Source: Elusimicrobiota bacterium (GTDB lineage: Bacteria; Elusimicrobiota; Elusimicrobia; FEN-1173). Taken from it: a stretch of 64,000 nt of DNA. This document shows positions 6,186 to 53,506 of the stretch, one piece after another. The DNA lies in assembly GCA_016721625.1 (NCBI GenBank), contig JADKHR010000001.1, forward strand, positions 1,967,225 to 2,031,224. Reading direction: 5' to 3'. Under the pieces are notes generated by a model that had not been told where the DNA came from, made no database searches, and saw nothing but the letters and a program-made list of their open reading frames with translations. Within the stretch, counting starts at the first letter, position 1. Every line of letters starts with the position of its first letter. The translations under genes and the position numbers were made by a program.

Positions 6186-7910
6186 ATGCATACGTTATCG
6201 AATCGCTTTCGAGGTTCTTTTTGGAGGGGTATCGGGGTGTTGGGCGGGGGTATTCTGCTCGCTTTCCCGGTGCGGGCCGATTTATTTGAAACGATTGATT
6301 TTACCGGAACGGGCGCCGGGTATGACATGACCGCGGCTTCTTTTTCCTTCTTAAGCCTTCATGGCGCGGTTCAAGCGGGCGATATAAACGGAGACCAGTT
6401 AGCCGACGTCGTTATTCTGGCCGACGGCCGTGTCCAGGCGAACGATTTTCAAACCCCAGGGGGATGGATTCCTCCGACCCATTACCTGTACAATCCAATT
6501 AATCTCGCCGTCGCTGGCTCAAGTTCGCCCAACGTTTTGGCTGGGATTGTGGGAGCTCCCAACTCCACCTTTATCCAATATACCGGAGGGGACCTGGCCT
6601 GGTACCAAAACAATGGAAACGGGTATTTCGAACCTTGTTTTGTTAACCTCAACACCGGCAATCCCCCCGAAATTTACAACGGAAAAAATCTTCAAGTGGC
6701 GGATTTGGATGGCGACTCAGACAACGATATCGTTGTTTGGGCCAGTATGGAAACAACACAACCGACTTCGCTCTCGGCGCCGGGCGAGTGGCTTGGTTTG
6801 AAAGCATTCCTTTGACGACCAATAAAATACAGTTCAAACAATTCAATGCTGTTGATCCATGGAACACCCCAGGGCATTTTTCAGTGGGCTTAACTAGTTA
6901 CAGTGTCGATGATACGCAGGCGGGAACCTTGGTTAACATGAACTTGGACGGTAAATTAGACTTAGCCGTTTTGGCTCATGGCGGTGCCATTTTCGGGGAA
7001 TCAGGGCTATACGTTTTTAAAAACAATGGAGCCGGACCGGGTTTGTTCAGCCAAACAGTTGGGAATGTGGCTCCCGTCATAGTGGCCGGCGCCCCTATCG
7101 CGATCGGTTCGGCATTGTTATTTCGTCCGCCGACATCGATGGCGACACCTTTCCGGATCTGGTCATTGGCGAGGATGGCCCAACCGGCGGCAATGACCAG
7201 GAATTGTTTTACTTAAAGAATCCCAGCGGGGACATTTTTAGCGGCTTACCTTTCACCAAGGTCGTGGTCCATAACCAGTTCCCCGTCTTCCGCGCGGTGA
7301 CCGTCTCCGATGTGATTCCAGGCGGGTGCCAAGAGATCATCGCCGGGGGAAATCAGACCGGCTCGCCGATTTCCATTTTTTCCGGCAGTCTTCAGGGTGG
7401 CGCGAATTGCGTTAACTGGACCCAGACCCCGCTGGCCGGAGCGAACACCTTGGGCAATATACTCGACATCCGCGTGGCCGATTTCAATAACGACGGTTTG
7501 TTGGATATCGTTGCTTTTTCGGAGAGCGCTCCGAACCCCCTCCCCACTTTGCCGGCGGGAAAAAGCACGGTGACGACCCTCTGGCTGAACTCCGGATCGC
7601 TTCCCACGAACCCGATCACGGCCTGGAGATCCATCCCCTTGGTCGAAAACGGCGCTCTTCCGGCCATGAATATCACCCGGGGGGATTGGCTGTTAGTGAT
7701 TTTGACGGAGATGGGGATATGGATGTGGTGCGGTCCCACATTGAAACCAACCTCGCCTATTTCGAAAACAACTGGAACACGGAACGCCATGTGAAAGTCA
7801 TGACCACCATCGAGAAGAAGGGGTTCGTTCAGCGAGTGGTCTCCTTTCTGTACACTTTGCCGGACCGATCCGTGGGGCGGATCCTTGGGCAAGACGTGGG
7901 TGCCCCTTGA
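6186..7910 (+). pseudogene. FG-GAP/VCBS repeat beta-propeller protein with signal peptide, interrupted by at least three frame changes
   Basis: Four consecutive ORFs (6186-6815, 6737-7216, 7204-7794, 7686-7910) in frames 0,2,1,0 each carry FG-GAP-type motifs (DINGDQLADVVI, DLDGDSDNDIVV, NMNLDGKLDLAV, ADFNNDGLLDIV, SDFDGDGDMDVV); N-terminal signal peptide MHTLSNRFRGSFWRGIGVLGGGILLAFPVRA. Confidence 0.6.
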
Positions 7911-8601
7911 AAATCCTAAACGGGAAGGGCCGCCCCCGCGGCTTTACGCTCATTGAGATGGTGGTGGCTATTTCGTTGGTTTCCATTCTTGGCCTTTTTA
8001 TTTTCAAGATGATGCGGAATTTTGTCGATGGGTTAGGCGGGGTCCAGAGATCGATCCCTTTGCAAAGGGATCTGCAAATCGCCAAATACGTCATCGAAAA
8101 AGATCTTCTCTCGGCCCGCGCCATTCCATTGGAAACGCCGTCCCCAATTGCGGTTTTGAGGAAACGCCGACAGCGATGTCAACGACTTTGCCTCCTCCCC
8201 CGGGGGGATGGACGTGCGTCCCGTACCCGCCGACGATTTCAAACTCTCAATTTTCTTACCGAATAGGGTATATCAGCGGCCGTCCGGTCTCGGTGTTGAA
8301 TGGACATTACGGGCTGATCGTCTCTTTGGATGACAACAGGCAATTTGCCGCGCAATCGGCGACGTTTTCGTTGGTGGGCCAGAATATCTACCTGTTCGGG
8401 GTGGGGATCCGGACTTATAAATCAAATATCGGTCGGGGAGCGGACTCGGTGCTTCTAGGCGATCCCGTTCCCTGGCCTCCTCTTCTTTCCTCCGCACTGG
8501 CCATCACGCTCGCTTCTCCCCGCAAACATGGGTTTATCTTGTTTCCTCCTTTACGGCTGTTGGAACTTATAATTATCGGGTTGAAGCCGGAGCGTCCCTG
8601 A
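7907..8601 (+). CDS. prepilin-type N-terminal cleavage/methylation domain protein (type IV pilin-like pseudopilin), frame-shifted
   Basis: TTG start overlapping stop of FG-GAP gene; N-terminus MKILNGKGRPRGFTLIEMVVAISLVSIL has the canonical G/FTLIE prepilin motif followed by a hydrophobic helix; reading continues in another frame (8176-8601) with protein-like composition; C-terminal extent uncertain. Confidence 0.55.
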
Positions 8602-9061
8602 CGGATTCCTTTTACCCTCGACGCCGCGCATGACGACATTGTGGTGACGCCCCTCTCGTTGGACCTAACGACGACCAATGGGGTGACTTTCGAGTTCGAT
8701 CGATTTGAGGTGAGCGGCGCCACCAGTCGACGCGTACGGATACGATATCGTTTGGCGCCTCATGGAAATAGCGGGCAGTTGATCCGGGAACGGAGGCTGG
8801 TGCCCGGCAGCCCTTGGTCATCCCAAGGGTCGCTCAACAATATCCGGCGGCTTTGGGTGGGATGGGATTTTGGCCAGCCCAGGCCTGGGATCCTACCCAG
8901 CCCTCTCCCTTTCGGATTTTTCCAGAAAGGCATGAATTTTCCGCTCGTCATCTTTTTGGAATCGGGAGAGGTGGGGCCCCGCTCGGCGGATCGGTCGCGT
9001 CTCCGTCAACCACCCGGAACGCCCTCGAGTTGGTGTTTTCCGTTTTCCGGAGGCGCCTTAA

Positions 9062-9527: not shown

Positions 9528-10442
9528 CAGTCCTTTCCGTTCTCATCGTGAATACTTAGGATTGGCCATGAAAAAATCGATCCCTCAAGCATCAAAAAAA
9601 GCCGGGGCGGCGATCTTAATGATCGTGTTCTTGCTTTTAATCCTGTTGCCCTAACCATGATCCTCGTCAAATGGAGCGCCCTTCACCTGCGAGGAAGCAA
9701 CCGGGGCCGTATTCACATGGACGAATATTATTCCGGAATCACCGCTACCAACGCGGCACTCCTTAGTGCCAATAGCTGGACCTGGGATAATACACTACCC
9801 CAAACCAACAGCCAAGTTTTTTTGGGTAGCGGAACGGTGATTTCTGTGCAAATAACCCATGTCGGGACCCCCTAATCGGTACCCATTATCCGGGTTAACC
9901 CGAAAGGTGCAGTTGGTTCGCGGGAGTTGAAATTTGAGATGCGGTTCCTGTCGCGTCCCACCCATCGGGAACCAGTGCAATCTGCGTCGCCTATGGCGGT
10001 CGTTTTACTGTAAAATTGTCGACATGCGTAACAGATCGCTGTCGTTTCGAAAAAGGCGGGCCTTCCTGTCCGGCTCCCTTGAGTTTTCCGAACCTTTTAA
10101 ATCCAGAACCTATGGGCCCCTCTAAGAGGGTTCGTCCGTCTGATTCGAAGGCGGCGGGCCCCGCCGCTGATCGAATCCATTTTGTCGAGGCGGGGGGAGT
10201 GGCCGGCGTGCGGAAGACCTGCGAGGTTCGGCTGGACGACCTGCCTCCGGCGGCCCGGCGCGGGGTGCGGCACGCTTTTGCCTCATCCAGGGGGCGGGGC
10301 CTGGGCCGGGACCTGAAAACATGCCGTCTCTCTCCACCGCGGAGGCGAGGGATCCGGGACGTCCTTTTGGACGAAGCCTCGGTGCCTCTGGCCGCCCGGC
10401 CCTTGGTGAGATACCTTTCCCAACGCGCTTCCCCGGCTCGGC

Positions 10443-20117: not shown

Positions 20118-21576
20118 ATGCTTTTCAATTCTTGGGAATTCCTTTTTTTCTTTCCTACGGTGACCGCTTTGTATTTCATCCTGCCCCATCGCTCTCGCTG
20201 GTTCCTGCTTTTGTTGGCGAGTTGTTATTTTTATATGTCTTTTATCCCGATATACATATTGATCCTTGGAGTGACGATCCTGGTGGACTATTACGCCGGC
20301 CAATTTATTGAAATGTCGTCGGGCCGAAAAAAGAAATATTTTCTTGCCGGCAGTATTGTCGCCAATGTGGGTTTCCTGGCTTTTTTCAAGTACTTCATTT
20401 TTCTTAATGACAATATGGCGTTGATAGCAAAGGCGATCCATTGGAATTACCCTATCCCTTCTTTAAATATCATTCTTCCCATCGGGTTATCATTCCATAC
20501 TTTTCAAGCCATGAGTTACACGATTGAAATCTATCGGGGCCGTCAAAAGGCGGAGAAGCACTTCGGCCTATTTGCTTTGTACGTGATGTTTTATCCGCAG
20601 TTGGTGGCCGGACCCATCGAACGTCCTCAAAATTTAATACATCAGTTTTCCGAGGAGCATGAATTTGAATACGGGAGAGTGTCCGACGGATTAAAATTAA
20701 TGGCGTGGGGTTTTTAAAAGGTCGTTGTGGCGGACAGGTTGGCGCTCCTCGTCAATCAAGTCTATGACAATCCCACGCGGTACACGGGTTTACCGTTGAT
20801 CATCGCCACCGTCTTTTTTTCCTTCCAAATCTATTGTGATTTTTCCGGATACTCCGATATCGCCATTGGATCGGCTCAAATCATGGGATTCAAATTAATG
20901 AAAAACTTTAACAGGCCGTATTTTTCGAAATCAATTGCCGAATTTTGGAAAAGATGGCATATTTCTTTGTCTTCGTGGTTCAGAGACTATTTTTATATTC
21001 CACTTGGGGGAAGCAGGGTTTCAAAAGGGAGATGGCAGTTTAATCTGCTCCTCACATTCTTGATAAGCGGGCTGTGGCATGGAGCCCATTGGACTTACGT
21101 TGCCTGGGGAGGCCTGAACGGGCTTTATTTCATTTTTTCAATTTGGACGGAAGGGATCCGGAAAAGAATCACTGTATTTGCGAACCTCCATAAGTTTCCC
21201 ATGGTTCAACAATGCGGGCAAATCGTTATAACTTATTCACTTATTTGTTTTTCTTGGATTTTTTTTCGAGCCAAAAATCTAAAAGAATCTTTCTATATTA
21301 TAAGTCATCTTTTTAAAGGGTCGAATCTATTTTTAAATTCAAAGCCGTCATCTCCGGCATCGGTGGGTTAGGATTCGGAAAGAAGGATTATTTAGCTGCC
21401 ATCGTTTCCATGGTCTTTTTAGAAACCGTGGAATACGTTCAACGAAAGGAAAGCCTTAGGCCATGGATTTCAAAACAACCCGCCTATGTGAGATGGGGAT
21501 TATATTATTTACTGGTTTTTTGGATTTGTTCATTCGGGGTTTTTAGGAAATCGCAATTTATCTATTTTCAATTCTA
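20118..21576 (+). CDS. MBOAT-family membrane O-acyltransferase (AlgI/DltB-like), interrupted by an in-frame TAA and a frame change
   Basis: MBOAT signatures SFHTFQAMSYTIEIYRG, FWKRWHISLSSWFRDYFYIPLGGSR, WHGAHW; same-frame ORFs 20118-20717 and 20727-21371 separated by TAA at 20715-20717 (…LKLMAWGF*KVVVADRLA…); C-terminus continues in another frame to ~21576. Confidence 0.75.
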
Positions 21577-21581
21577 AAACC

Positions 21582-22712
21582 ATGAAAAGAAATGTCGGGG
21601 CATTGTTAATTAAAATATTCATTTTGTCGGTTCCCATCGCCCTCCTCTTCTTCATCATGTGTTGGGCGATGTGGACTTCTGGCGAATTGATGTCGGTGAA
21701 GGATATCCTCAGAAATGAAACACCGGCGACTTTGTTCGGATTGGCATACTCGGACCCTAAAGAACGCTACAAATTAAATAAGCTGATAAAGAAAAACCCC
21801 GTGATCATCGCGCTGGGATCCTCCCGGGTTATGCAGTTTCGGGAGATCTTCTTCAAGCCGAGTTTTTATAATGCCGGGGGGTGTGCGGGGCGAATAAAAA
21901 ACTTTTCACAGTTTATGGCACATCTTCCAAACGAAATGAAATGCACGACGATGATCGTGGGTTTAGACCAAAACTTTTTCAATCCGAATTGGGACGACTT
22001 CGGACCAGATCACTTTTTGGATTTGCTGGAAAAGGAGAGATCCCGAGGGCCGCTCCTGGTTTCATCTTTTCAAAAGTTTTGGTTTGATTTTATGACCAAA
22101 GGGATTTCTCTCTCAAAAATAGCGAACAACAGGTGGAGCGAGGCCATTGGCTTGAACGCCATTGTTCAAAGCAACGGTTTCCAGGACGACGGCGGATATC
22201 AGAGGGGGCCACCGGCGAATAATTTAATAAGGGAGATCCCGAATTTTGCCGCGGAGCCAGGATCGGATGCTATTTTGAAAGAAGGAAGTCGATTAGCGGC
22301 GTTTAAAGGCATAAATGTTAACGCGATAAATGAACTCGATCGTTTTTTAGCGGCATGCAAAATGCGAAACATTCATGTCATTGCTTTTTTCCCTCCCTTT
22401 CCGGAAGATGTGTATGACAAATTGCTGGAACTAAAACCGGATTTTACCGGTTTTTTCCAATTGCCTAAACTCGTATCCCCGCATTTAAAAACGTTTGGAT
22501 TTGAGTTTTATGATTTCACAAATCCCAGAACGTTGGGAGCCCAAAACATGGAGTTTTGCGACAGTATTCATGGTTCCGACACGGTGTATTTGAGAATCGT
22601 TATTGGTATGGCCTTGAGGGGATCTTCCATAAACCAGAGCATCGATTTAAATTCCCTTGCCAAAATGCTTAACGATTCAAAAGGTGGAAAATCGGTATTC
22701 CCTTTAAAATAA
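21582..22712 (+). CDS. DltD/AlgJ-like SGNH-type acyltransferase partner of MBOAT, membrane-anchored
   Basis: 376-aa ORF with N-terminal signal anchor (…ILSVPIALLFFIMCWAMW…), GSS-containing segment …VIIALGSSRVMQF… and …CDSIHGSDTVYL…; directly downstream of MBOAT gene. Confidence 0.5.
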   Translation: MKRNVGALLIKIFILSVPIALLFFIMCWAMWTSGELMSVKDILRNETPATLFGLAYSDPKERYKLNKLIKKNPVIIALGSSRVMQFREIFFKPSFYNAGGCAGRIKNFSQFMAHLPNEMKCTTMIVGLDQNFFNPNWDDFGPDHFLDLLEKERSRGPLLVSSFQKFWFDFMTKGISLSKIANNRWSEAIGLNAIVQSNGFQDDGGYQRGPPANNLIREIPNFAAEPGSDAILKEGSRLAAFKGINVNAINELDRFLAACKMRNIHVIAFFPPFPEDVYDKLLELKPDFTGFFQLPKLVSPHLKTFGFEFYDFTNPRTLGAQNMEFCDSIHGSDTVYLRIVIGMALRGSSINQSIDLNSLAKMLNDSKGGKSVFPLK

Positions 22713-22771
22713 CCGCCGGACCACGGGGGAAAGGGGGGCCGAAATTAAACCGTTGGATGCCATTTTAACTG

Positions 22772-22831
22772 TATAATAGGGGTCGGTTTCCTTTGATGGA
22801 GGCTTTCGTCTTAGCGTAAGACGATTGACAT
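22772..22831 (+). promoter_or_regulatory. candidate promoter/5' leader element upstream of radical SAM gene
   Basis: TATAAT hexamer at 22772-22777 preceded by TG; perfect 19-bp palindrome tcgtcttagcgtaagacga at 22807-22825; TTGACA at 22826-22831; -35/-10 spacing not canonical. Confidence 0.25.
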
Positions 22832-22874
22832 GGCGGGGCCGAAGCCGGTCCGGCAGTAAAGGGACGCGCGCCAT

Positions 22875-23903
22875 ATGGAAAAGTCTTTTGTTCCCTTGGG
22901 GTGGTTGCCTCAAGAACACGTCGTCCAAATCAGCGCGGATTACGTCGAGGTTCTTGGCACCGATCGAATCGATAACGTGGAAAAACGTCTAGGTCCGTCG
23001 TATCAGGCGTACCGCGCGAACTGGACGTCACGGCCGCGATCGCAAATCGTGGGCGATTATCCCCTCCATTTGGATGTGGAATGCACGGCCGTTTGCAACC
23101 TTCGTTGCACCATGTGTCAAATCCCCTTTGATACGATGCCCTCCGGGTTGATTTCCCCAGGCCTCTTCAAGAAGATCATGGACGAAATTAAGCTGAGCAA
23201 AGCCGACCTTCCCTCCGTGAAATTTAATTTTCGCGGGGAACCCACCCTCCATCCTCAGATAGCGGAATTTGTCCGCTTGGCTCGGGAGTCGGGAATTATG
23301 GATGTCCAGTTCAACACGAACGGGACCATGCTGAACGAAAAACTTTCCAAGGACCTTATCTCCGCCGGTCTGGTGCGCATCAAATTTTCTTTGGACAGCA
23401 TGAATCCTTCCCTCTACAACAGCGTTCGGAAAGGCGCCGACTACAAAAAAACGTTAGGGCACATCCTTGATTTTTTGAGAATTCGAAATGAGCTTGGATC
23501 GGCTTTTCCTTCCGTGATGGTCCAAATGGTTTTCATGTCCATGAACCAAAATGAACTCATGGATTACATCCATTTCTGGCAGGACAAGGTCAACCGGATT
23601 GGGATTTCACGCTACCGCTCCGGCAACAATGAGTCCGGAGAGGACGCCCAGGTGAATGTTCCAGTGCAAACCGAACGGTTCCCTTGCCCCCAGCTATGGC
23701 AAAGGCTGGTCATCCTTTTTGACGGCACGGTGCTGATGTGTTGCGGAGATCACCACAGCAAAAATCCTATCGGGGATATCAAAACCCGTTCAATCCGTGA
23801 CATTTGGCACAGTCCGGAGCTCTCCGCCATGAGACGATTACATTCGGAACACCGGTATGATGAAATAGAGGCGTGCAAGGGTTGTCAAATCAACTGTCGT
23901 TGA
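22875..23903 (+). CDS. radical SAM protein with C-terminal SPASM/twitch-like Cys cluster
   Basis: CxxxCxxC motif in ...ECTAVCNLRCTMCQ...; C-terminal cysteine-rich region ...CPQLWQRLVILFDGTVLMCCGDHH...ACKGCQINC. Confidence 0.8.
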   Translation: MEKSFVPLGWLPQEHVVQISADYVEVLGTDRIDNVEKRLGPSYQAYRANWTSRPRSQIVGDYPLHLDVECTAVCNLRCTMCQIPFDTMPSGLISPGLFKKIMDEIKLSKADLPSVKFNFRGEPTLHPQIAEFVRLARESGIMDVQFNTNGTMLNEKLSKDLISAGLVRIKFSLDSMNPSLYNSVRKGADYKKTLGHILDFLRIRNELGSAFPSVMVQMVFMSMNQNELMDYIHFWQDKVNRIGISRYRSGNNESGEDAQVNVPVQTERFPCPQLWQRLVILFDGTVLMCCGDHHSKNPIGDIKTRSIRDIWHSPELSAMRRLHSEHRYDEIEACKGCQINCR

Positions 23904-23999
23904 CGGCGGGTTTTCGGGCGGAGAGAATGAGGAAAAGGTCGACGAAACATCGGTCGGGCCGGGGGTGGTGATTTGAAATTGGCGAACAGGTCGGGGGCG

Positions 24000-24572
24000 A
24001 TGAAAACGAAATACCTGGTTGGCCGGCGCGTTACGCTCGGGCTGATTTCGCTCCGGGCCGATTTGTCCCACTACGCGGATTGGGTCAATGACCGCGAAAC
24101 GACCCAATTTATGGCGGTCGGGCGGTTCCCCGTGACGCTCGGCGAATTGCGGGCCTACGTCCGCCAGTATGCCGTCGACAAAACTGGCCTCTTGCTGGGT
24201 ATTTTTCTAAATAAATCAAAACGACACATTGGAAATATCACGTTGAACGACATACAATGGAAGGATCGGCGCGCGGAGGTCGGCGTTCTCATCGGGGAGA
24301 AGCCGTTCCGCGGCAAAGGTTACGGCCGGGAGGCCATCGAGCTCATTGTCGAGCATGCGTTCGGGTGGCTTAATTTACACAAGTTGTCTTGCGGGATGGT
24401 CGAGGGCAATGAGGCCTCTCGCCGGGCATTTATGCGGATCGGTTTTAAGGAGGAAGGGTTTTTGCGCCGTCATGTTTTTGTGGACGGTTCCTACCTGGGT
24501 TGTTACCGCCTGGGTTTATTGCGGGAAGAGTATGCAAAAACATTGCAACCAAAATTGAAACGAAGGGAATAA
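24000..24572 (+). CDS. GNAT-family N-acetyltransferase
   Basis: ATG 24000 in frame of ORF 23973-24572; acetyl-CoA binding-like segment …RGKGYGREAIELIVEHAFGWLNLHKL…. Confidence 0.65.
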   Translation: MKTKYLVGRRVTLGLISLRADLSHYADWVNDRETTQFMAVGRFPVTLGELRAYVRQYAVDKTGLLLGIFLNKSKRHIGNITLNDIQWKDRRAEVGVLIGEKPFRGKGYGREAIELIVEHAFGWLNLHKLSCGMVEGNEASRRAFMRIGFKEEGFLRRHVFVDGSYLGCYRLGLLREEYAKTLQPKLKRRE

Positions 24573-24576
24573 AACC

Positions 24577-26502
24577 ATGCGGAAAATGTTTATTGCCACC
24601 GGTGACCGTCGGCTCGATTTGGGTGTTTCGCTTGAACCCGTTACGGCCTTGCGCGGCGGGTCGAATTTGGTCGCGAGTCTTAAAACGGCCGATCATACGA
24701 TTTCTATCTCGGCCACGAAGAAAGCCTACATTTGGGGGGATTTGTTTTATTTCATTAACCCGGACGGTTCCGTCCTCCCGATGAATTCAAAGGGGCGGAT
24801 CCAAAACATTTTCCGGAAACATTCCTATCGGGATATTCATCACTCGATGGAAGGCCAGTTCGTGTGCCTGCTCGCGGATTCCGAAAAGAGAAATGCCGTT
24901 ATTTTTTCCGATCGATACTCGCGCCAAGATTATTTTTACGCGGAAGAAAATAATCAATTCTACCTCAGTTCCGATCTGGATTTGTTGTTCACGTTCATTC
25001 AACCGCGCTACGACCAGAAAATGATCGCCCACATGTTTTCGGTGTATGGGTGGTATGTCCCCAAGCCGCGAACCATGTATGTGGGAGTGAACCGTTTGGC
25101 CGTTGGAGAAATTAAACATTTGGACGGGGAGATTTCAACGGAACAGGTCGAATTCAAACCTCTGCCCATCCAAGATTACACTCAAAACCACCTGGCCACG
25201 TACGAGAGTTATTTGCGGAATTCCATCAGAACCCGGGCCAACCAAAAAGGGACCACATGGGTGTCCAGTTCAAGCGGTTGGGATTCGTCCAGCTTGGTCG
25301 GCCTGTTGGCGGATGAGTTCGGTTCTGGAAAAGTCAGGATGGTCACCGGCAGTATGCTGTACTCGAAGGCGACCCATGTCATCAATTCTTTTGAAATCGA
25401 GAAGATAAAGAAAATCGGCAAATTTTTTGGAATCCGCCCCGATATTGTTCCTTTCGATTTCAAAAACCGGGCCATCGTGGATTACTGGAAGAAGGTGCTT
25501 CCATTTTATAAATCGCGTCATGTCTACACGATCGTCACCCACAATTACTCCCGCTTGTCCGAACGGCTGACGGAGTCGAACGGAGGGTCGGAAGTGGTTT
25601 TCAATGGAGAGACCTCGGATTCTTTTCACAATTTCGGGTTTTCTCAATTTGTGACATTTTTTCATACCGTCAAATCATTCACCGAATACGCCGATAAAAT
25701 GAATTGCTATCTTTTCGGACCGACTTTCTTTAAGAAAGTCCTTGATGATTCATACCTGAGCGACAAAGTGTTCCAGATTTTTCAACGAATGAAACCCGAG
25801 GTCAAGTGGGCGGGGGCGGGGGCCTCCAAGGCGGAAAAGATGCGCGCCTATTTATCTCCGTTATTCCACGGCTCAACGAGGATTCCCTTTGCGAGAATCC
25901 CCGCCAATCCGGCCCTGAAACCGTCTGTTGAGGCCCAATCCGTCCATTACATGTTTGAGTGTTTTCGGAATTTGGAATCGATGACCCCGGAAACAATGTA
26001 TTCGTGGATAATTTATCTCTACCACAGCATGCATTCCCAGGGCTCCACGGTCAATGTTCAAAAACACGCCATGGCCATGAACGGCCACGGGTGGAGATCT
26101 CCTTTTAATGATTTACGATTAATCCAACTGCTTTCACAGGCTCCCGAGTCTTGGGGACGGGGCCTCGATCTCCATCACACAAAGTATCCGCTGAAATGGT
26201 TGTTGAAAAACCGTCTTAAATTTCCGTATGAATTGCTTGAAACGGGTCCCCATTCCTATCTCTATGACGTTCTCGAGGGATTTTCTTTGACCGAGGAGAT
26301 CGTCTACCGATCGGGAGTGAGTGAATTTTTCCGTCAAACCCTCCATTCAAAGCCGTATCGAGGGTTATTGGATGATCGCACCTTCAATGTCAAATACCTG
26401 GACTCCATTGCGGATGCGTATCTGCAAAAAAAGGAGACGAAAGGCCAAGATTTCAACAATCTTGTCAGTCTGATCACTTTGTGCATGACCGGGTGGTATT
26501 GA
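24577..26502 (+). CDS. asparagine synthetase-like PP-loop ATP pyrophosphatase lacking N-terminal Cys nucleophile (possible sugar amidotransferase)
   Basis: 641-aa ORF; PP-loop-like segment ...TTWVSSSSGWDSSSLVGLL...; N-terminus MRKMFIATGD has no Cys2. Confidence 0.55.
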   Translation: MRKMFIATGDRRLDLGVSLEPVTALRGGSNLVASLKTADHTISISATKKAYIWGDLFYFINPDGSVLPMNSKGRIQNIFRKHSYRDIHHSMEGQFVCLLADSEKRNAVIFSDRYSRQDYFYAEENNQFYLSSDLDLLFTFIQPRYDQKMIAHMFSVYGWYVPKPRTMYVGVNRLAVGEIKHLDGEISTEQVEFKPLPIQDYTQNHLATYESYLRNSIRTRANQKGTTWVSSSSGWDSSSLVGLLADEFGSGKVRMVTGSMLYSKATHVINSFEIEKIKKIGKFFGIRPDIVPFDFKNRAIVDYWKKVLPFYKSRHVYTIVTHNYSRLSERLTESNGGSEVVFNGETSDSFHNFGFSQFVTFFHTVKSFTEYADKMNCYLFGPTFFKKVLDDSYLSDKVFQIFQRMKPEVKWAGAGASKAEKMRAYLSPLFHGSTRIPFARIPANPALKPSVEAQSVHYMFECFRNLESMTPETMYSWIIYLYHSMHSQGSTVNVQKHAMAMNGHGWRSPFNDLRLIQLLSQAPESWGRGLDLHHTKYPLKWLLKNRLKFPYELLETGPHSYLYDVLEGFSLTEEIVYRSGVSEFFRQTLHSKPYRGLLDDRTFNVKYLDSIADAYLQKKETKGQDFNNLVSLITLCMTGWY

Positions 26503-26550
26503 TCCCTTGGAGGATTTAAAGGCTTCCATGGTGCAGGTTTCGGACGCGGT

Positions 26551-28053: not shown

Positions 28054-28073
28054 ATGGAATAGGGAGAATCCCA

Positions 28074-29077
28074 TTGGGTCGTCAAAAATTTCAATTTCCG
28101 CTCCTCATCGCAGAGGTTGCCAATTCACACGGGGGTTCTCGTCCGTATCTTTTCCAACTGACCAAGAGGCTGCTGGCTACGAGCGTCCCTGCCGTTAAAT
28201 TTCAATGCATCGTGGCGGATGATTTTTTGACCCCCGCTCACCCCCAATACGAGCTATTCAAGTCCTTTGAATTTCCGCCGACCGTATTTTCCACGCTGGT
28301 GCGGCTCATCCATGGGGCAAGGAAAAAGGCGTATTTTGACGTTTTCGGCGACATCTCGTTGGCGGCGGCGGATCGGGTCGGCGCCGACGGTTTTAAAATC
28401 TATGCCAGCGACATCGGCAATAATCCTTTCATTGAAAAGGTCCTCTCGATCGGAAAGCCGGTCTTGATCTCAGTGGGGGAGCGACGCTGAGCGAAATCGA
28501 CGAGATTGTTAAAATATGTTCGGGAAAACAGTTCTGTCTCTTGGTGGGGTTTCAAGCGTTCCCTACTCCGATCGAGGAATCCAACGTGGGGAAAATTAAA
28601 TTCCTAAGAGAACGATACGGTTGTTCCGTCGGATACATGGATCATTCTCCGGCCATTGACCCTTTCTCGGAATTTGTCCCTTGTTTGGCGGTTGGGCAAG
28701 GGGCCTGTTGCATCGAAAAACACGCGTATCTTAAAGCCAGGAAGACCTTGTATGATTGGCAATCGGCGTTCGACCCCTCCCAGTTTGAAACGCTCGCTCA
28801 CCGCCTTAAGAAGGCTCAGTCCGCGTTGGGGACAACGTTCTTTCCCCTTTCTTCTTCTGAACAGGCTTACTCCCGCTCAAAGCGGAAAATCATTGTCGCG
28901 GCCGATCCGATCGACCAAGGAGTTCGGATCCTCCCCAAGAACATCATGGGCCGATGCGCCCATCTTTCTTCGAGGACCTCGTTTTTCACACTCAACCAGT
29001 CCGGCCACGTGGTCGGTCGAGTGGCTCGAAAAAATATCCAACGGTTCGAGGTGATCTCGCCGGACATTTTAAGATGA
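28074..29077 (+). CDS. NeuB-family nonulosonate/ulosonate synthase paralog 1 (one frame change)
   Basis: TTG 28074 after AGGGAGA RBS; N-terminal ...PLLIAEVANSHGGS...AVKFQ...; continues after a frame change at ~28470 (ISVG / GGATLSEIDEIVKICSGKQFCLLVGFQAFPTP...MDHS...IEKH...). Confidence 0.7.
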
Positions 29078-29811: not shown

Positions 29812-29823
29812 TGGGGGAGCCTG

Positions 29824-30881: not shown

Positions 30882-30982
30882 AAGGATCCTCATGGGCTTT
30901 GGGTTCTCTCGTTCCGGCGGGATGGGTCGTTCGCGGCGTTTAAAATATTCAACGAATTCTAACGTTGCCTTTTGGAGCCAAA

Positions 30983-39024: not shown

Positions 39025-39897
39025 TTGATGACCCATGTATTCATCGTCAATGATTTAAAGGGGGTCCGAAAGATCGTTGAACAAAAAGCGGGCGGACCTT
39101 TCTCGTATTTTGTTTTCAGGGAACATGCCCATGGTCCAGAATCCAACGAGCTCAAAAAGGCCGGGGGAATTGAGATCAAGGCCGGAAAACTCTTTTCGGA
39201 GGTTAACGCGCATTTTCGGGACGATTTCGTTTCTTGGATGGGGGCGCTCAATAACGCCGGTCATTCCCCGTTCTGGGACGGATTGGACCTGGCCGGGAAA
39301 AGCGCCCTTTCCACGCGGGTCTGCGAACGCGTTTTTTATACGGACTGTTTGACCCGCCTTTTGAAATACGACGGCGAGGATTTGGTGATCGTCTTTGATG
39401 ATGCCGCTGTCCTCCGGCAAATAAAACGCAACTTTAAAAACAGGATCATCCGTGATTTCAGCGTCGGGAAACCGCTCGGACTAAGAATTCTCACGGATTT
39501 TCTTCCGGGAAAGGTCCTCCATCGATTCGTAGTTTCCGTTTTCCGAAAAACAACCGCTGGGCCAACCCCTTTTCCAACGGGCCTCCAGCGCCTGGTCGTT
39601 GTTAAGACAGTCCTCAGTGAGGGATCCTTTGACGTCGCGGGCGCTTATCGGGATCTCTACTTCGGGGATCTTCTCCCTTACCTGCAAGAGAGGCAAAAGA
39701 ATTTATTGGTCGTTGGCATCGTTCTAAACGCTTATCGACAAACGGTGGAATACCTGCGGCGAAGCGGGACCCTCCAGGTGTATTCCATCGAGCAGTTGCT
39801 GAGCGTGTTCGAATTGGTCGGGATTTTTATTCGCGCGGTGTGGATGTTTTATTCTCGCCTTTTTACGATCTCCGGGTTCCCCGTTTCCGAGGAATGA
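39025..39897 (+). CDS. hypothetical protein
   Basis: 290-aa ORF, protein-like composition, no recognised motif; stop overlaps next start (ATGA). Confidence 0.4.
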   Translation: MMTHVFIVNDLKGVRKIVEQKAGGPFSYFVFREHAHGPESNELKKAGGIEIKAGKLFSEVNAHFRDDFVSWMGALNNAGHSPFWDGLDLAGKSALSTRVCERVFYTDCLTRLLKYDGEDLVIVFDDAAVLRQIKRNFKNRIIRDFSVGKPLGLRILTDFLPGKVLHRFVVSVFRKTTAGPTPFPTGLQRLVVVKTVLSEGSFDVAGAYRDLYFGDLLPYLQERQKNLLVVGIVLNAYRQTVEYLRRSGTLQVYSIEQLLSVFELVGIFIRAVWMFYSRLFTISGFPVSEE

Positions 39898-40810
39898 GTC
39901 TGCAACGGATTGTGCAGGATTCGGTGATGGAGGAATTGAGGGCGAGCCTGAATATGGTCAAAATGATGAATTCGCTTACGACAAAGAAAATCGTCGAACA
40001 AAACGATGTGGAGCGGTTCATTCTGCCCTATGAAAACCGCGGTTGGGAACGAGCGGATATGATGGTTCTTCGCGCCCTCAGCAGGCAGACCCGCGTCATT
40101 GGATATCAGCACGCCGCCATCACCGGGAAGCACACCGAATATTGTCTTTCGGCGGCGGAAGCCCTTCCCCTCCCAGACGTCCTTGTTTCCATGGGAGAGG
40201 TAACCGCCCATATGCTCACCCATCGCGGGGGGTACCCCGAAGGGATCGTGAAAAGCGGGTGTGCCCTCCGACAGAAAGGCGGCGAAGTCAAAATCTTACC
40301 GCCCCGGCGACAGCCGGCCCATGTATTGGTGTTGCTTTCCACCAGTCCGGATTACTACGCACGGACTCTCTTTGCATTGAATAAGATCTTCAAGGCTCCC
40401 GGTGGTTATTCAATTCGTCTGCGCGCGCACCCGCTCATCCCGTTAAAAAACGATCTCCGCAAAACAATCGTCTTCCCTTATGGGGAGGATCATTCCTTGG
40501 AAGACGACGCGATCGACTGGGCGGACGTGGTTCTTTACAGTTCATCGACCACATTGGTTCTGAATTGTGTGCAACGCGGAAAACCTGTATTCTATGTTCC
40601 AGTCGATGATTATTTGGATTCGACCCCCTTTACGAGTCGGCGGACATTAAATGGGTGGTTCGCACCGCTGATGCGTTTCATCAGGCCATGGCGGAATTGG
40701 GTAGCATGGACCCAGCCCGATGGCAAGCGCGGGTGACCCAGGCTCAGGCATACGTCGGGCGTTATTTCGGACCCGTTTCTAAATCAGCGATGAACATATT
40801 CCTTGAATAG
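39894..40810 (+). CDS. hypothetical GT-B-like protein (TagF/capsule-biosynthesis-like C-terminal region), one frame change
   Basis: ATG 39894; ...DWADVVLYSSSTTLVLNCVQRGKPVFYVPVDDYLDS... resembles the donor-binding region of TagF-like glycosyl/glycerophosphotransferases; C-terminus continues in another frame from ~40625 to stop 40808-40810. Confidence 0.35.
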
Positions 40811-42793: not shown

Positions 42794-44321
42794 AGCCTTC
42801 CCCGCCTCCTTTGGCGGTTCGAGCGGATGCTGGGCCCGCCATGGGGACTGGGCATATGATGCGTTGTATCGCGCTGGGGCAGGCTTGGCGCGCTTTGGGA
42901 GGCCGGGTCGTTTTTCTAACGGCGAACAGCCTTCCCTCTCTTTTGTCTCGAATACCTGGAGGGATTTCGTCATTCCCCTTTTGACGGTTCGAGCCGGCGG
43001 CCGGTCGGACGCTGTCAAAACGGCGGACGCGGCGCGGAGGTTCGGGGCTCGCTGGGTCGTGGTCGATGGATATCATTTCGGGCCCGGCTATCGAGAGATT
43101 TTGCAAAAAAGCGGATTTCGCGTTTTGTGGGTTGACGATCTCGGCAGTTCCGAGAATTGTTTTTCAGACATTGTTGTGAATCAAAACCTTCACGCCAAGC
43201 CGAACCTTTATCCTCGCCGTGAGGCCCGCCCCCGGTTGATGTTAGGGTCCCGCTACGCGTTGTTGCGAAACGAGTTCTCCGCTTTCCAGCGGCGATCCGC
43301 TCGGCATTCAACAGTGAAACGAATATTGGTTTCGGGCGGGGGAACCGATCCTAAAAACATAACGAGAACCGTTCTGAAGGCCTTGGCGAATGTTCCGGCT
43401 CCTCGGTTTGAGATCGACGTCCTTCTTGGCGGAGGGTATCGTAAGGCGTGGTCCCTCGCCGGATGGGCACGCCGGGCGGGTGTTCATCGGGTTCACGTTC
43501 ACAAAAACCCAAGAAATATCGCTTTTCTGATGTCTCGTGCCGACCTGGGAATCCTGGCGGCCGGATCCACTTGTTTGGAAATCGCTCGATTGGGGCTTCC
43601 GGCTATTCTCGTGGCCCAATCTGACAACCAAACCAACATCGCCCATTCAATGCATCAAGAGGGTGCCGCCTGGAGCCTGGGGTCCATCGCTTCCTTGTCG
43701 GTAGGGGAAATCCGGGATCGAGTCGAATGGTTGGCGCGATCGCCATCGGTTCGTAAACGAATGTCTCTAAGAGGAAAACGGCTCGTTGATGGAAAAGGGG
43801 CCAAGCGCGTGGTGGCCATGATGCAGGACATGGCTTCGCCAAGGGTTCCCTTTGTTCTTCGACGCGTCCGTCCCTCCGACTGTCGAAGGTTGTGGAATTG
43901 GGCGAACGACCCGGCCGCCCGCGCGGCAAGTTTTTCTGAAACCCGTATTCCATGGGGGCCCCACCAGGCCTGGTTTAAGGAACGACTTAATAATTCCCAT
44001 TGTGTTATTTTCGTTGCCGTTCTTCGACAGGGGAAATCCATTGGAAGTGCGCGTTTTGAACGCCGAAAGATCGGTTGGGTGATTTCCGTTTTTGTCGAGA
44101 GGACCTATCGTGGGCAAGGGCTTGGATCCAGTCTCATCCGAACGGCGGCATGCGCGTTCATGAGGGACACCGGAGAAAAGGTTGTGAACGCTTATGTGAA
44201 GCCCACCAACGGCGCTTCTCTCCAAGCTTTCCTTCGAGCGGGGTTTCGTCAAAGGGCGAAAACGCGCATTTCAAACACTCCGGCCTATTGGTGTGTGTTA
44301 ACCACGGAAGATTGTCAATGA
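42784..44321 (+). CDS. pseG: bifunctional PseG-like UDP-sugar hydrolase / PseH-like GNAT acetyltransferase (one frame change)
   Basis: N-terminus ...LAVRADAGPAMGTGHMMRCIALGQAW... (PseG-like) in frame 1, continuing after a frame change at ~42950 in frame 0 (...WVVVDGYHFGPGYREILQKSGFRVLWVDDL...); C-terminal GNAT domain ...FVERTYRGQGLGSSLIRTAACAF... Confidence 0.65.
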
Positions 44322-45417
44322 ACGAACCCACAGCGATCCGCGATCGGAACGTTGGAGACGGGAACCCGGTCTACATCGTGGCGGAGATGTCGGCGAATCA
44401 CGGGGGGGACTATTCCAGGGCTGTGAGAATACTGCAGGAGGCCAAGACCGCCGGGGCTGACGCGGTCAAACTTCAGACCTACACGGCCGATACCCTCACG
44501 ATAAAATCCGAGCAGGACTGTTTTCGAATCGGCCATGGTTCTTTGTGGGAAGGAAAGCGGCTTTACGACCTCTATCAGGAGGCGTACACCCCTTGGGAGT
44601 GGCATCCGAAGCTGAAGGAAGTGGCCCGACGCTTGGGTTTGGATCTTTTCTCCTCGCCCTTTGACGCCACCGCCGTGGAATTTTTGGAAACAATGGATGT
44701 TCCTTGTTATAAGATTTCGTCATTCGAGATCATCGATATCCCGTTGATCCGGCGCGTGGCGCGAACCGGAAAGCCCATGATCCTGTCAACGGGAATGGCC
44801 ACCCGGGAGGAAATTGACGAAGCGGTGCGCGAAGCCCGCACCCACGGAGCCCGTGGGATCGTTCTTCTTAGTGTCAGCGCCTATCCGGCGCCGGCAGAGG
44901 AAATGAATCTTCGCGCCATTCCGCGCCTCTCCCATGATTTCGGCTTTCCGGTGGGATTATCGGACCATACGCTTGGATCGGCCGCCCCCGTGGCCGCCGT
45001 TGCGTTGGGGGCCTGTCTCATGAAAAACACTTTACGCTTTCCCGTTCGTTTGCCGGTCCGGATAGTTCGTTTTCAATGGAACCCACGGAGTTCAAGGCCA
45101 TGGTGGAAGCTGTTCGTGGAACGGAGAAAGCTCTCGGAAAATCTGATTACGTTTTGGGGGAGAAAGAGAAGGCGAGTCGCGCTCTCCGGCGCTCTCTGTT
45201 TGTGGTCCAAGAGATGGCGTCGGGCGACGTTTTCACCGAGACCAACGTCCGTTCCATTCGGCCGGCGAACGGGTTGCCTCCCCGTCATTACGCGGAGGTG
45301 TTGGGCCGCCGCTCGACGCGTGGGATACAACGCGGGACGCCGTTGACGTGGGACCTTGTGGAAAAAATAGGGGATGGAATGATCAAAGATACGGGGAAAT
45401 CCAGGAGCGAAAAATGA
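44318..45417 (+). CDS. pseI: pseudaminic acid synthase-like NeuB-family enzyme (PseI-like), one frame change
   Basis: ...VYIVAEMSANHGGDYSRAVRILQEAKTAGADAVKLQTY...GKPMILSTGMAT...GLSDHTLG...; frame change at ~45032 (ctcatgaaaaacac); then ...EKHFTLSRSFAGPDSSFSMEPTEFKAMVEAVRGTEKALG... with SAF-like C-terminus. Confidence 0.75.
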
Positions 45418-49475: not shown

Positions 49476-51360
49476 GTGTGCGGGATAGTGGGTCTTTATA
49501 GTCGAGAACAGGGCACCGCCTGTTTCCTTACTTGGGAAAATGGCGGATGCTTTGGCTCACCGGGGACCGGATGGGGGCGGCGCTTGGGTTTCGCCCGACG
49601 GTCGGGTGGGGTTGGCCATGCGGCGGTTGGCGATCATTGATGTGGCGGGGGGGCGACAGCCGATCTTCAATGAAGATGGGACGGTGGGGATTGTTTTTAA
49701 CGGGGAGATTTATAATTTCGAGGTTTTGCGGAAAGAGTTGGAGGCCAAGGGGCACCGGTTTAAAACCCATTCGGACACGGAAACCATTGTCCATCTGTAT
49801 GAGGAAGAAGGCGTGGAGTGCGTTCGGCGGCTTCGGGGGATGTTCGCTTTTTCCTTGTGGGACGAGAAACGCCAGCGGTTGTTTTTAGCTCGGGACCGGT
49901 TCGGGAAAAAGCCGCTCTTCTACATGGAACGGGGCGGCCGGCTGGCGTGGGCGTCTGAACTTCAGGCGCTTAAAAAGTTCCCGGACTTTGATCCGGAAAT
50001 GCACCCCGAGGCGCTGGATCTGTTTTTAAGTTTTCAGTATATCCCCAGCCCGTTCACCATCTACAAAAATGTTCGGAAACTTCCCCCGGCCCACCGTTTG
50101 ATCGTGGAGAAAGGCGCGGTGCGGGTGGAACGGTATTGGGACCTTCCGGTTAACCAACCGCCCTTATCGATCGGGTTGGAAGAGGCCAAGTTCGAGATCC
50201 GCCGACGATTGACCGAGGCGGTCAAAATGCGACTGATCTCCGAGGTTCCTTTGGGCGCGTTTCTTTCGGGCGGTATCGATTCCTCCGTCATCGTGGGGCT
50301 CATGAGCGAATTGTCGGACCAGCCCGTTAAAACCTTTTCCATTGGGTTCGACCATGAGGAATTTTCCGAACTCCCCTTCGCCAAGGAGGTGGCCCGGCGG
50401 TTCGGGACCGACCACACGGAGTTCGTGGTCAAGCCCGAGATGGCGGAAGTGCTTCCCCTTCTGGCCCGCCATTACGGCGAGCCTTTCGCGGACCCCTCCG
50501 CCCTGCCGACCTATTACGTGGCGCGGGAGACCCGGCGGCACGTCACCGTGGCCTTGAACGGCGACGGGGGGGACGAGAACTTCGCGGGATACCTTCGGCA
50601 CGTGGCGGCCCTGGGGGCCCACAGGGCGCGGGCCGTTCCCGGAGCGGTTTGGAAAGCGGGGGCCAAAACGCTTTCCCTACTCGGAGATCGCGGGGGTTCC
50701 AAGGGGTGGGTGTGGCGGGTTCGGCGCTTGATGGAGAGCGTGGGGGAATCGGACCCCGCGGCGCGCCATCTCGGGTTTTCTTGTTTTTTCCCGGACCCGC
50801 TCAAACGCGCGCTCTATACGGAAGCCTTCGCTTCCCGGGTTGCCGAGGGACGGGCGTTGCGCTATATTCGACAAGCCTTCGACCGGGCGCCCAGCGCCGA
50901 TGTCATCAACCGGACGCTCTACACGGATTTTTCGACCTATTTGCCGGAATGTTTGATGACGAAAGTCGACATCGCCTCCATGGCGGTTTCTTTGGAGGGA
51001 CGGTCGCCGCTCCTGGACCACGATTTCGCGGAGTTCGTGTTCCGACTGCCCGGCCGGTGGAAATTAAAGGGATGGTCCCAGACCAAATGGATTTTCAAAG
51101 AAACCTTCAAGGATCTCCTTCCCCCGTCGATCTTGAAGCGGAAAAAAATGGGGTTTGGGATTCCTTTGGGACCCTGGTTTCGGGGGCCGCTCCGTCCGAT
51201 GTTTCAGGAGACCGTGCTTTCTCCCGAGGCGCTCCAGCGGGGCTATTTCCGGCCCGAGGTTCTTCAGGGATTATGGGACGAGCACCAATCGGGCCGACGG
51301 GACCACGGGTATCGCCTGTGGGCTCTCCTCATGCTGGAAATGTGGCAACGCCATGGGTGA
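49476..51360 (+). CDS. asnB: asparagine synthetase (glutamine-hydrolysing), N-terminal frame change
   Basis: GTG-TGC at 49476 gives (M)CGIVGLYSREQG... with catalytic Cys2; frame changes by +1 near 49500 into ORF 49540-51360 (...MADALAHRGPDG...NGEIYN...); PP-loop ...LSGGIDSSVIVGLM... Confidence 0.8.
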
Positions 51361-52438
51361 ACCTTTGACCCTGGCGGCGGAGGCGTGGGATCGGACGACG
51401 GCCACGGCCGTTAAGCACCATGTGTTTCAAACCGCGGGTTGGTCCGAGGTTAAAGCCCCGTCGGGCTGGCGGGCGCACCGTCTTTGTGTGGAACGGGACG
51501 GCGTTTTCCGGGTGGGGCTCCAGGTTTTGGAGCGGGATTTTCCAAAAATTCGGTACCGTTTTTTTTACGCGCCCCGGGGCCCGGTTCTCTCGGAGGGATG
51601 GACGGCGGAGGATTTGGCGGAACTGTTCCGTCGAGTGGAAAAGCTGGCGCGGGAACGTAAAGCGGTTTTTCTTAAGATCGATCCCGATGTCTCAAAAACG
51701 ATGGACTGGATTTCGGGGCCTCTTTTGCAAAACGGGTTTCGGCGGGCGCCGGAGACGGGCGGGTTTTCGGGGGTTCAGCCTCGGCTGGTGTTTCGCTTGG
51801 ATATTTCGAAGAGCGAAGAGGATCTTCTGAAGGGGATGGATCAGAAGACCCGCTACAACATTCGTTTGGCGGAAAAGAAGGGCGTGACCATCCGCCCGGT
51901 CGCTTCCCGCGAAGAGATTGAAACCTTCTACCGCATCCTCGTCGATACGGCCCGCCGGGACGGATTTTTGATTCGGCCGGCGGGGTATTTTTTGGACATT
52001 CAAAAGCGGTTGGGCGCGCAGGGGAAGGCTCAATTTTTCCTGGCCGAGCGCGAGGGGAAACCGATTTCCGGGGCCCTGGCGCTCACCCATGGGAAAACAA
52101 CCTGGTATGCTTACGGCGCCAGCGCCAACACCGACCGTCAATACATGCCCAACCATCTGATGCAATGGACCATGATCCGCTGGGCGAAATCCAACGCCTG
52201 CACGCTCTACGATTTCCGCGCCGTGCCGAGCAACCCGAAACCGGAGGATCCGCTGTACGGGTTGTATCGGTTCAAGAAAGGCTTTGGGGCGGAACTGACG
52301 GAGTTTGTGGGGGAATACGACCGCGTGTATGTCCCTTGGCTCTATTTCCTGTGGGTTCATGGGTGGCCGATCTTTAAGAAAATCCGGCGGGCGATCCTCC
52401 TTCGTCCGTCCCGTTCGACTCGTCCCGAGGCCGACTGA
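51353..52438 (+). CDS. FemAB-family aminoacyltransferase (peptidoglycan branch formation-like)
   Basis: ATG 51353 overlapping asnB end; ...WYAYGASANTDRQYMPNHLMQWTMIRWAKSNACTLYDFRAV... characteristic of FemAB/FemX family. Confidence 0.65.
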   Translation: MGEPLTLAAEAWDRTTATAVKHHVFQTAGWSEVKAPSGWRAHRLCVERDGVFRVGLQVLERDFPKIRYRFFYAPRGPVLSEGWTAEDLAELFRRVEKLARERKAVFLKIDPDVSKTMDWISGPLLQNGFRRAPETGGFSGVQPRLVFRLDISKSEEDLLKGMDQKTRYNIRLAEKKGVTIRPVASREEIETFYRILVDTARRDGFLIRPAGYFLDIQKRLGAQGKAQFFLAEREGKPISGALALTHGKTTWYAYGASANTDRQYMPNHLMQWTMIRWAKSNACTLYDFRAVPSNPKPEDPLYGLYRFKKGFGAELTEFVGEYDRVYVPWLYFLWVHGWPIFKKIRRAILLRPSRSTRPEAD

Positions 52439-53506
52439 TGTCGTCAATGGACCACGCTCTGCGCTGGGTGGAGGTGAATCTGGCCGCCATCGCCCACAAC
52501 GTGCGGGCGGTGAGGCGGGGAAATCGGGCCGGGCCTTGGCTTCGCCGCGGTCGTCAAGGCCGACGGGTATGGCCACGGAGCGCCGGCGGTGGCCCGGGTA
52601 GCCCTCGCCTCGGGCGCCGACTTGCTGGCCGTGACCGATCTGAACGAGGCCCTGGCCCTTCGCGCCGCTGGGCTCGGCGCTTCGATCCTGATCACCGGGC
52701 CGGTGAATCCCGCGCGGGCGGGCGTGGTGTCCGAAAACAAATTTTCTGTGATGGTGGACAACCCCCGCCTCCTTCGCGCCCTCTCGTCCTTGAACGCTCG
52801 GCGGCCTGTGTCGGTGCAGATCGAGGTCGACCTGGGACTGGGCCGGTGGGGGGTTGGGCTCCAGGATCTCCCAAAATTTTATCGTTTGGTGGAAAAAGCT
52901 CCTGGGGTTCGCTTAGATGGGATCTATGCCCATCCCGGCTATGTGGCCGGGAAAAACGGTCCTTTGATTCGAAAACGGTTGGCCGAGTTTTGCGCCGTGA
53001 CGGATCGGTTGTTCGCCGACGGCCGCGCCGTTCCGCGCCATGTGGCCAATAGTGCTCTCCTTCTGGATTTTCCAAAATACCGATGGGACGGAGTTCGGGT
53101 GGGGAACCTTCTCTACGGCATCCATTCGACTCCGGGGGTTCTCTCGCTCCAAAACCCCTGGCGGCCCTTGTCCAAGATTGTTCGGATCGGGCGCGTTCAG
53201 GCGGGTCAGCGGATCGGGTATGGGAGCGAGTCTATTTTCCCCCGCGCCATGACGGTGGGGACTATTCCCGTGGGCTACGGACACGGGTTGACGTTGGAAC
53301 CGGCGTCGGTCTTGAAGGGGCGCCGGCCCTCCTTCCATTATTGGGGAATGGTTCGCGGGGTTCGGTGCCCGTTCATCGGAAAACCTGGAATGAATCACGT
53401 CTTGGTGGATTTGAGCGGCGTGGCGAAACCCCGGGAGGGGGAAGAGATTCAGATGCCCCTTCGACGAACGGCCGCGGCCCACTGGCCCAAGGTCTATCTC
53501 CGTTAG
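52438..53506 (+). CDS. alr: alanine racemase, N-terminal frame change
   Basis: N-terminus MSSMDHALRWVEVNLAAIAHNVRAVRR... then frame change near 52510 into ...LGFAAVVKADGYGHGAPAVA... (PLP-lysine motif) and ORF 52589-53506. Confidence 0.75.

Follow-up and report, generated by a model that had tools for sequence, protein, structure and literature searches.

Frame breaks across a surface-glycosylation region of an Elusimicrobiota genome very probably represent single-base long-read consensus errors

Surface-structure genes carry contingency tracts in some pathogens, among them Campylobacter and Neisseria, and slippage rates become high once such mononucleotide tracts reach approximately 7–8 nt or more. 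Genes interrupted at short runs are also described as bacterial frameshift pseudogenes and, furthermore, as artifacts, since homopolymer indels leading to frameshifted gene calls are a known residual error of assemblies based on Oxford Nanopore R9.4.1 reads (PMC9262707). The present analysis concerns a stretch of 64,000 nucleotides from the genome of an Elusimicrobiota bacterium (GenBank assembly GCA_016721625.1, contig JADKHR010000001.1, positions 1,967,225 to 2,031,224 of the forward strand), hereafter referred to as the window, in which genes of a nonulosonic-acid/polysaccharide island and of a preceding accessory block are repeatedly interrupted by changes of the reading frame. These frame breaks are very probably single-base sequencing or assembly errors, rather than pseudogenes or cases of biological frameshifting. 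The class in question, long-read consensus indel errors, is well known, and nothing biologically new is involved.

Compared to the residual indel errors of R9.4.1 assemblies (PMC9262707; PMC8012365), the window features the same single-base indels, the same excess of missing bases, the enrichment at homopolymers, fragmented gene calls, and patchiness, and similar breaks occur in metagenome-assembled genomes (MAGs) of the same phylum from the latter project. It differs in that many of its sites lie in very short runs (2–3 nt) or in none, and in that the sequencing platform is deduced here. Bacterial frameshift pseudogenes share with the window the one-base indels and the restriction to an accessory region; in the window, however, there are no substitutions of conserved residues, no nonsense codons beyond a single TAA explained by homopolymers, and no larger deletions. 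Homopolymeric-tract contingency loci likewise comprise surface glycosylation genes interrupted at mononucleotide runs, but the tracts of the window are too short, are scattered inside genes, affect housekeeping genes too, and do not appear to be conserved in relatives.

For each candidate break, all single-base repairs in the surrounding interval were enumerated, and the resulting translations were scored against a hidden Markov model (HMM) of homologs or against an ortholog. The references comprised 120 M4 proteases (38 of them used to build the M4 HMM, and 82 further homologs held out), 120 AsnB proteins, 150 PseG/H relatives, solved structures for PseI, NeuB, AsnB, Alr, and DltB, and three plasmid MBOAT genes. 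The Joint Genome Institute (JGI) metagenome contig Ga0613648_000398 (L088) was used as syntenic reference for the window between 15 and 31 kb. Its positions 10001–22034 are syntenic with 15000–30900 of the window, i.e., the first half of the glycosylation island, at 60–74% amino acid (aa) identity. Common to both are an uncharacterized 677-aa protein, a 229-aa protein, the glycosyltransferase GT1, an acetyltransferase, a 647-aa AsnB-like protein, a flippase, NeuB, a cytidylyltransferase, and a NeuB protein with SAF domain, all copies on L088 being intact. The metagenome scan yielded two short contigs, one of which (L082), likewise syntenic, carries FemAB and Alr and was taken as reference for the latter. 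With HppA as query, relatives were obtained from other phyla only, with at most 81% aa identity, which were of no use for comparison at the DNA level. A chimeric query composed of four genes retrieved M4 proteases exclusively. The 737-aa radical-SAM protein had no relative in the genome-collection scan, PseG had no match in the PDB by sequence, and exact-protein look-ups of three intact open reading frames (ORFs) of the window gave no match, as did that of P0241, a truncated product listed below.

In total, at least 24 miscounted bases were found between 6.6 and 52.5 kb. Approximately 20 of them are missing and three are extra (at 16430–41, 18825–33, and 52517–20), the AsnB break being undecided in this respect; a T7 run read as T5 is the only two-base event, and no large deletions were found among the breaks. 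All ten positions given in a preliminary description of the window were confirmed by the repair scans as real frame changes inside one gene. That description was incomplete, since the M4 protease is broken eight times instead of three, GT1 and the MBOAT O-acyltransferase twice each, and the FG-GAP repeat protein three times. Its view of the breaks as runs lacking one base holds for only about 85% of the miscounted bases; the sites at 16430–41 and 52517–20 are one base too long.

The protealysin-like M4 protease (12399–13439) carries eight one-base deletions in 1 kb, three of them within 45 nt (13106–13150):

12425–12436, + strand: M4 break 1, deletion of one base, with TTT 12433–35 as the preferred site
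12656–12658, + strand: M4 break 2, deletion of one base; GGG in place of GG recovers RSEG
12661–12668, + strand: M4 break 3, one base missing in the AAA or the GGGG run
12909–12910, + strand: M4 break 4, deletion of one base; with CCC in place of CC, the zinc-binding motif HELTHG is recovered
13106–13110, + strand: M4 break 5, one base missing; CCCC to C5 or GG to GGG, restoring APGTAY
13129–13138, + strand: M4 break 6, one base missing; best repairs outside any run
13147–13150, + strand: M4 break 7, deletion of one base; extension of CCCC to C5 recovers DPQPAHM
13427–13432, + strand: M4 break 8, deletion of one base; extension of GGGG to G5 yields the natural end AWKSVGVK-stop

For break 1, repair at TTT 12433–35 scored 470.5 bits and an additional G at 12434 scored 472.3 bits, compared to 466.7 bits for the CCCC run at 12425–28. 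Thus, a break suspected at CCCC near 12424 is real, but its best site is about 10 nt away, the CCCC option scoring 4–6 bits lower. Breaks 2 and 3 are better described by two deletions (473–474 bits) than by the removal of a single base (467 bits). At break 4, frame 2 encodes the Pfam N-terminal domain of the protease as far as 12912, whereas the C-terminal domain follows in frame 1 from 12932 onwards, in agreement with the earlier suggestion that HELTHG near 12908 needs CCC. The CC option at break 6 was 3.5 bits worse than the best repairs. Break 8 had been placed at GGGG near 13431 and is weakly located at the G4 run 13428–31: its repair gains approximately 3 bits, and the homolog P0001 ends in AWKAVGL.

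The repaired M4 protease matched all 99 columns that are conserved in at least 90% of the 38 homologs (the homologs' own median being 97), contained no stop codon, and reached 478 bits against the family HMM, compared to a median of 293 bits for the 82 held-out homologs. Drift over a period long enough to accumulate eight indels would have cost conserved residues and added stop codons, which indicates that this gene has not decayed. This result bears directly on real pseudogenisation, according to which the accessory glycosylation/adhesin region decays via slippage at short runs while the core genes remain under selection. Such decay would account for the restriction of the breaks to 6.6–52.5 kb, with MreD, PBP2, RodA, and RNase G (1–6 kb) as well as all genes from glycerate kinase through HppA (53.5–64 kb) being intact, and homopolymer slippage is a genuine mutational route. 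Given that eight frameshifts coexist with complete residue conservation and a repaired frame free of stops, pseudogenisation is nevertheless very unlikely. Consensus errors in an otherwise functional gene remain the preferred explanation. Further breaks are located in the glycosylation island and in the alanine racemase gene:

16430–16441, + strand: 677-aa conserved protein, one extra base (T5 run, T3 run, or the G between them)
18825–18833, + strand: N-terminus of the GT1 glycosyltransferase, one extra base (TTT or CC)
18859–18864, + strand: N-terminus of the GT1 glycosyltransferase, one missing base (TT should be TTT)
20708–20718, + strand: MBOAT O-acyltransferase, in-frame TAA (20715–17) within WGF*KVVVAD
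21317–21368, + strand: C-terminus of the MBOAT protein, shift from frame 2 into frame 1 by loss of one base; conserved end FIYFQF in frame 1; bounded to this interval
28470–28479, + strand: NeuB paralog 1, deletion of one base; the top repairs include the G5 run 28475–79 (ISVGGATLSEID)
30096–30105, + strand: NeuB paralog 2, frame 0 to frame 2, one base missing
42951–42964, + strand: PseG/PseH fusion, one base missing; first ~55 residues in frame 0, the rest in frame 2
45017–45022, + strand: PseI, one base missing in ctcat/g just 5' of an A5 run; not a homopolymer (no run of 2 nt or more)
49502–49525, + strand: AsnB, frame 2 encoding MCGIVGLYS and frame 0 encoding LLGKMADALAHRGPDG
52517–52523, + strand: alanine racemase (Alr), insertion of one base, with the G4 run 52517–20 as the preferred site; a true G3 gives NVRAVRREIGPG

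The 677-aa protein is split into the ORFs 14995–16443 and 16463–17068, and its ortholog on L088 (P0242) is intact. The frame change suspected at a T-run near 16440 was confirmed, but it is due to an extra base and not to a missing one. In the MBOAT gene, WGFFKK is found in all three references; the top-scoring repair converts T5A4 to T7A5, i.e., three missing bases, and the only in-frame stop codon among the lesions is explained in this way. The expected breaks of the NeuB paralogs near 28470 and 30101 were both recovered: in the second paralog, extension of A5 to A6 or of the adjoining G to GG yields DDLPKKAYF, which is the sequence of the ortholog. Likewise, the break expected near 42950 in the PseG/H gene was verified, its one-base repair raising the HMM score from 60 to 259 bits, with several runs of 2–3 nt within the interval. 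For PseI, the break announced near 45032 is real, but its site is located 10–15 nt upstream and adjoins the A5 run without lying in it. The AsnB break near 49500 is also real, but placement at a single base failed; it may consist of one extra or two missing bases and was located only to a 24-nt variable stretch. The Alr break near 52510 holds as well, with the difference that the G4 run is one base too long.

A codon-usage Viterbi analysis proposed further shifts within this part of the window, which were rejected. The shift at 17834 is the boundary between two genes according to the comparison with L088, and those at 24561, 29057, 33110, 42776, 44247, 46383, and 52403 are gene boundaries as well.

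The orthologs were uninterrupted at every tested site and featured different codons there. Intact counterparts were available for the 677-aa protein (P0242, 677 aa), NeuB1, NeuB2, and GT1 (L088), Alr (L082), and MBOAT (three genes), and the N-terminus of PseG/H is present in 145 homologs. Sequence identity to the L088 orthologs was 61–73% for broken genes and 62–74% for their intact neighbours, the exception being the 677-aa protein, whose first two-thirds are poorly conserved (40%). The broken genes are therefore not more diverged from their orthologs than the intact ones, which speaks further against decay of the island, as does the presence of alr among the broken genes, this gene being normally essential for cell-wall (peptidoglycan) synthesis.

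Uninterrupted orthologs with different codons at the affected positions also rule out a conserved programmed frameshift. In general, expression of the broken genes by programmed ribosomal frameshifting or transcriptional slippage would fit those breaks that are located at A- or T-rich runs (16437–41 and 30100–04). Nevertheless, a common slippery motif was not found among the sites, both shift directions occur, and no tested short motif was enriched. Up to eight sites within one gene, orthologs that are single ORFs at the same positions, and the interruption of the essential gene alr are equally difficult to reconcile with such a mechanism, the probability of which is regarded as negligible. 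Methylation-type motifs (GATC, CCWGG, CCGG, and CATG) were not enriched at the break sites either.

To evaluate the association of the consensus errors with homopolymers, the 17 resolved break intervals were compared to random intervals of identical lengths. Runs of at least 4 nt were touched by ten of the 17 intervals, while 4.5 would be expected by chance (P about 0.005). When the minimum run length was set to 3 nt (13 vs. 9.9 expected, P 0.09) or to 5 nt (4 vs. 1.7 expected, P 0.08), the difference was not significant. The homopolymer link is thus real but partial, and indel errors concentrated at homopolymers, as proposed in the preliminary description, are the best-supported explanation. 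The same description had left real pseudogenisation and programmed slippage as alternatives inseparable by sequence; this no longer applies, since both are now largely excluded by the conservation of the M4 protease, the identity to orthologs, and the intact ORFs of the latter.

Regarding the window as a whole, homopolymers of at least 5 nt occur at 8.3 per kb on the + strand, which by a rough estimate is about three times as many as random sequence would contain, and 11% of all bases are part of runs of at least 4 nt. The runs are strand-asymmetric (112 G5 vs. 40 C5 and 28 G6 vs. 7 C6), probably as a coding-strand effect, because nearly all genes of the window are located on the + strand.

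The nature of the affected genes raises the question of phase variation or population heterogeneity, i.e., of runs that are polymorphic in length and of a consensus that caught the OFF variant of surface-glycan genes. Surface-structure genes are indeed affected, several sites lie in runs of 5–6 nt, and candidate tracts would be A5/A6 in NeuB2, G5/G6 in NeuB1, the T/A tract in MBOAT, and G6/G7 in the FG-GAP protein. However, the assembled runs at the sites comprise 1–6 nt and their deduced true lengths 2–7 nt, mostly below the length at which slippage becomes frequent. Moreover, the sites occur anywhere in the genes instead of in 5' switch regions, no conservation of the tracts is apparent in the orthologs, which are strongly diverged at the DNA level, and alr and asnB are broken too, as is the protease, eight times. 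This explanation is consequently considered highly improbable, and an equally slight chance is assigned to the variant in which a minority of the breaks would be genuine run-length polymorphisms of a primitive ON/OFF switch of glycosylation, with the consensus representing the OFF state.

Indications of a long-read origin of the sequence were obtained from database records. The ORF 14995–16443 is 100% identical to the NCBI entry MBL0059160.1 ('MAG: hypothetical protein IPP35_08650 [Elusimicrobia bacterium]'), which is encoded on a single contig of 2,758,065 bp; one contig of 2.76 Mb in a MAG points to long reads. The closest AsnB homologs (73–80% aa identity) also originate from Elusimicrobia MAGs. 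One of the MAGs carrying the closest AsnB relatives (73% aa identity over the aligned gene, 75% in another comparison) is L087, with the whole-genome shotgun (WGS) prefix JADJIN; L085 (GCA_016722605) and L086, which have neighbouring accession numbers, carry the identical AsnB. In the part of the supplement of Singleton et al. 2021 (PMC8012365) considered here, L087 is listed, whereas the WGS prefixes of L085 and L086 were not found. The assemblies of that study were generated by CANU from Nanopore R9.4.1 reads and polished with Racon, two rounds of Medaka (r941_flip213), and then one round of Racon with Illumina reads and the option --include-unpolished (PMC8012365), so that polishing windows without short-read support stay uncorrected.

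Similar breaks were detected in the sister MAG L085 (positions 1429–2636 and 18208–20731), where an HI0933-like gene is spread over three frames and a beta-CASP gene over two. Both are housekeeping genes and intact in the window, which again argues against the decay of an accessory region as the cause. Furthermore, compared to L086 and L087, which represent the same species, L085 has one C fewer in a C6 run, splitting a 402-aa gene. Between L087 (approximately 5790–5920) and L086 (5785–5906), again within the same species, 16 gapped positions were observed, namely 12 one-base gaps and one four-base gap. This cluster, which may represent a local misassembly or alignment noise, borders on a 1.7-kb structural difference truncating a B12/radical-SAM gene and was for this reason not used as evidence.

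We propose that the frame breaks arose as consensus errors when a metagenome was assembled from long reads, and that subsequent polishing with short reads would have corrected them only partly. The platform was most likely Oxford Nanopore R9.4.1, both the platform and the polishing history of the window contig being deduced from related records. In this process, the basecaller and consensus step would miscount bases, mostly dropping one, preferentially but not only in runs, and each miscount would shift the frame of an otherwise functional gene. The patchiness could result from window-wise polishing with uneven short-read support, for example across a strain-variable island.

Several points weigh against consensus errors as the explanation. 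The error status of each site is deduced from the assembled sequence and not observed in reads, and homopolymer slippage is also a real mutational process. The origin of the window contig from the same Nanopore project is likewise inferred, on the basis of the style of locus tags and accession numbers and of the sister MAGs. About 40% of the resolved sites are located outside runs of at least 4 nt, and at two of them, 13129–38 and 45017–22, the best repairs include no run option; a pure homopolymer model is therefore insufficient. Finally, breaks occur only within the accessory glycosylation region, whereas the flanking core genes (17.6 kb; 1–6.2 kb and 52.6–64 kb were free of detected breaks) are unaffected, and the decay of an accessory island would look alike. 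Within the affected region, the density of breaks is highest between 6.6 and 14.7 kb (eight in the M4 protease and three in the FG-GAP protein) and lower between 16 and 52.5 kb.

The breaks of the FG-GAP repeat protein, upstream of the M4 protease, are deduced without a close homolog, from the distribution of its repeats and stop codons:

6647–6813, + strand: FG-GAP break 1, shift from frame 2 into frame 1 by loss of one base; bounded by stop codons only
7021–7214, + strand: FG-GAP break 2, shift from frame 1 into frame 0 by loss of one base; bounded by stop codons only
7679–7684, + strand: FG-GAP break 3, frame 0 to frame 2, likely site a G6 run

The FG-GAP repeats are spread over four successive frame segments, and the joined protein scored 91 bits, compared to 41, 18, 33, and 19 bits for the single pieces. 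Moreover, an FG-GAP_3 match (residues 235–311) crosses the junction of break 2 in the joined protein. Judging from the repeat motif, break 3 is likely a G7 run read as G6, since G7 would give NITRGGLAVSDFDGDGDMDVV. In the GC-rich stretches nearby, the codon-usage Viterbi analysis proposed five further frame changes in 13440–14730 and three in 9938–11940. One of the ORFs concerned is lipoprotein-like with coiled coils and the other contains a PLD-like domain; these are candidate changes only.

The frame breaks have consequences for the use of the record. Truncated products of the broken genes are present in public protein collections as ordinary proteins:

14995–16443, + strand: truncated product P0241 (MBL0059160.1), 482 aa
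42981–44321, + strand: truncated product P0244, 446 aa, PseG/H without its first ~55 residues

The finding amounts to a quality warning only, stating that gene calls in this contig are fragmented. Deducing pseudogenes, the loss of pseudaminic-acid synthesis, or phase variation from the record would be misleading, and the repaired coordinates can be used to correct the annotation.

The overall organization of the window is as follows:

1–6 kb: MreD, PBP2, RodA, and RNase G, core cell-wall genes at the start of the window
6–14.7 kb: accessory block with the FG-GAP repeat protein, pilin-like genes, an emfourin-like ORF, and the protealysin-like M4 protease
15–52 kb: large nonulosonic-acid/polysaccharide island
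15–52 kb: island genes for glycosyltransferases, the MBOAT acyltransferase, radical-SAM enzymes, AsnB, and FemAB
15–52 kb: island genes for two NeuB paralogs with a cytidylyltransferase, PseB, PseC, the PseG/H fusion, and PseI
window end: core genes for Alr, glycerate kinase, 2-hydroxyacid dehydrogenase, PBP1A (minus strand), tRNA-Asn, and HppA

Within the island, two overlapping ORFs of about 290 aa each were observed at 39025–40736 in frames 0 and 2, with the overlap spanning 39633–39894. Neither a Pfam match nor a homolog in the plasmid collection was found for this pair, which may represent one gene with a further frameshift. In the accessory block, the emfourin-like ORF (10190–10417, frame 1) matches the protealysin-inhibitor family (Pfam PF20242) and is located about 2 kb upstream of the M4 protease. 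Judging from their sequences, the two possibly constitute an inhibitor/protease pair in this Elusimicrobia MAG.

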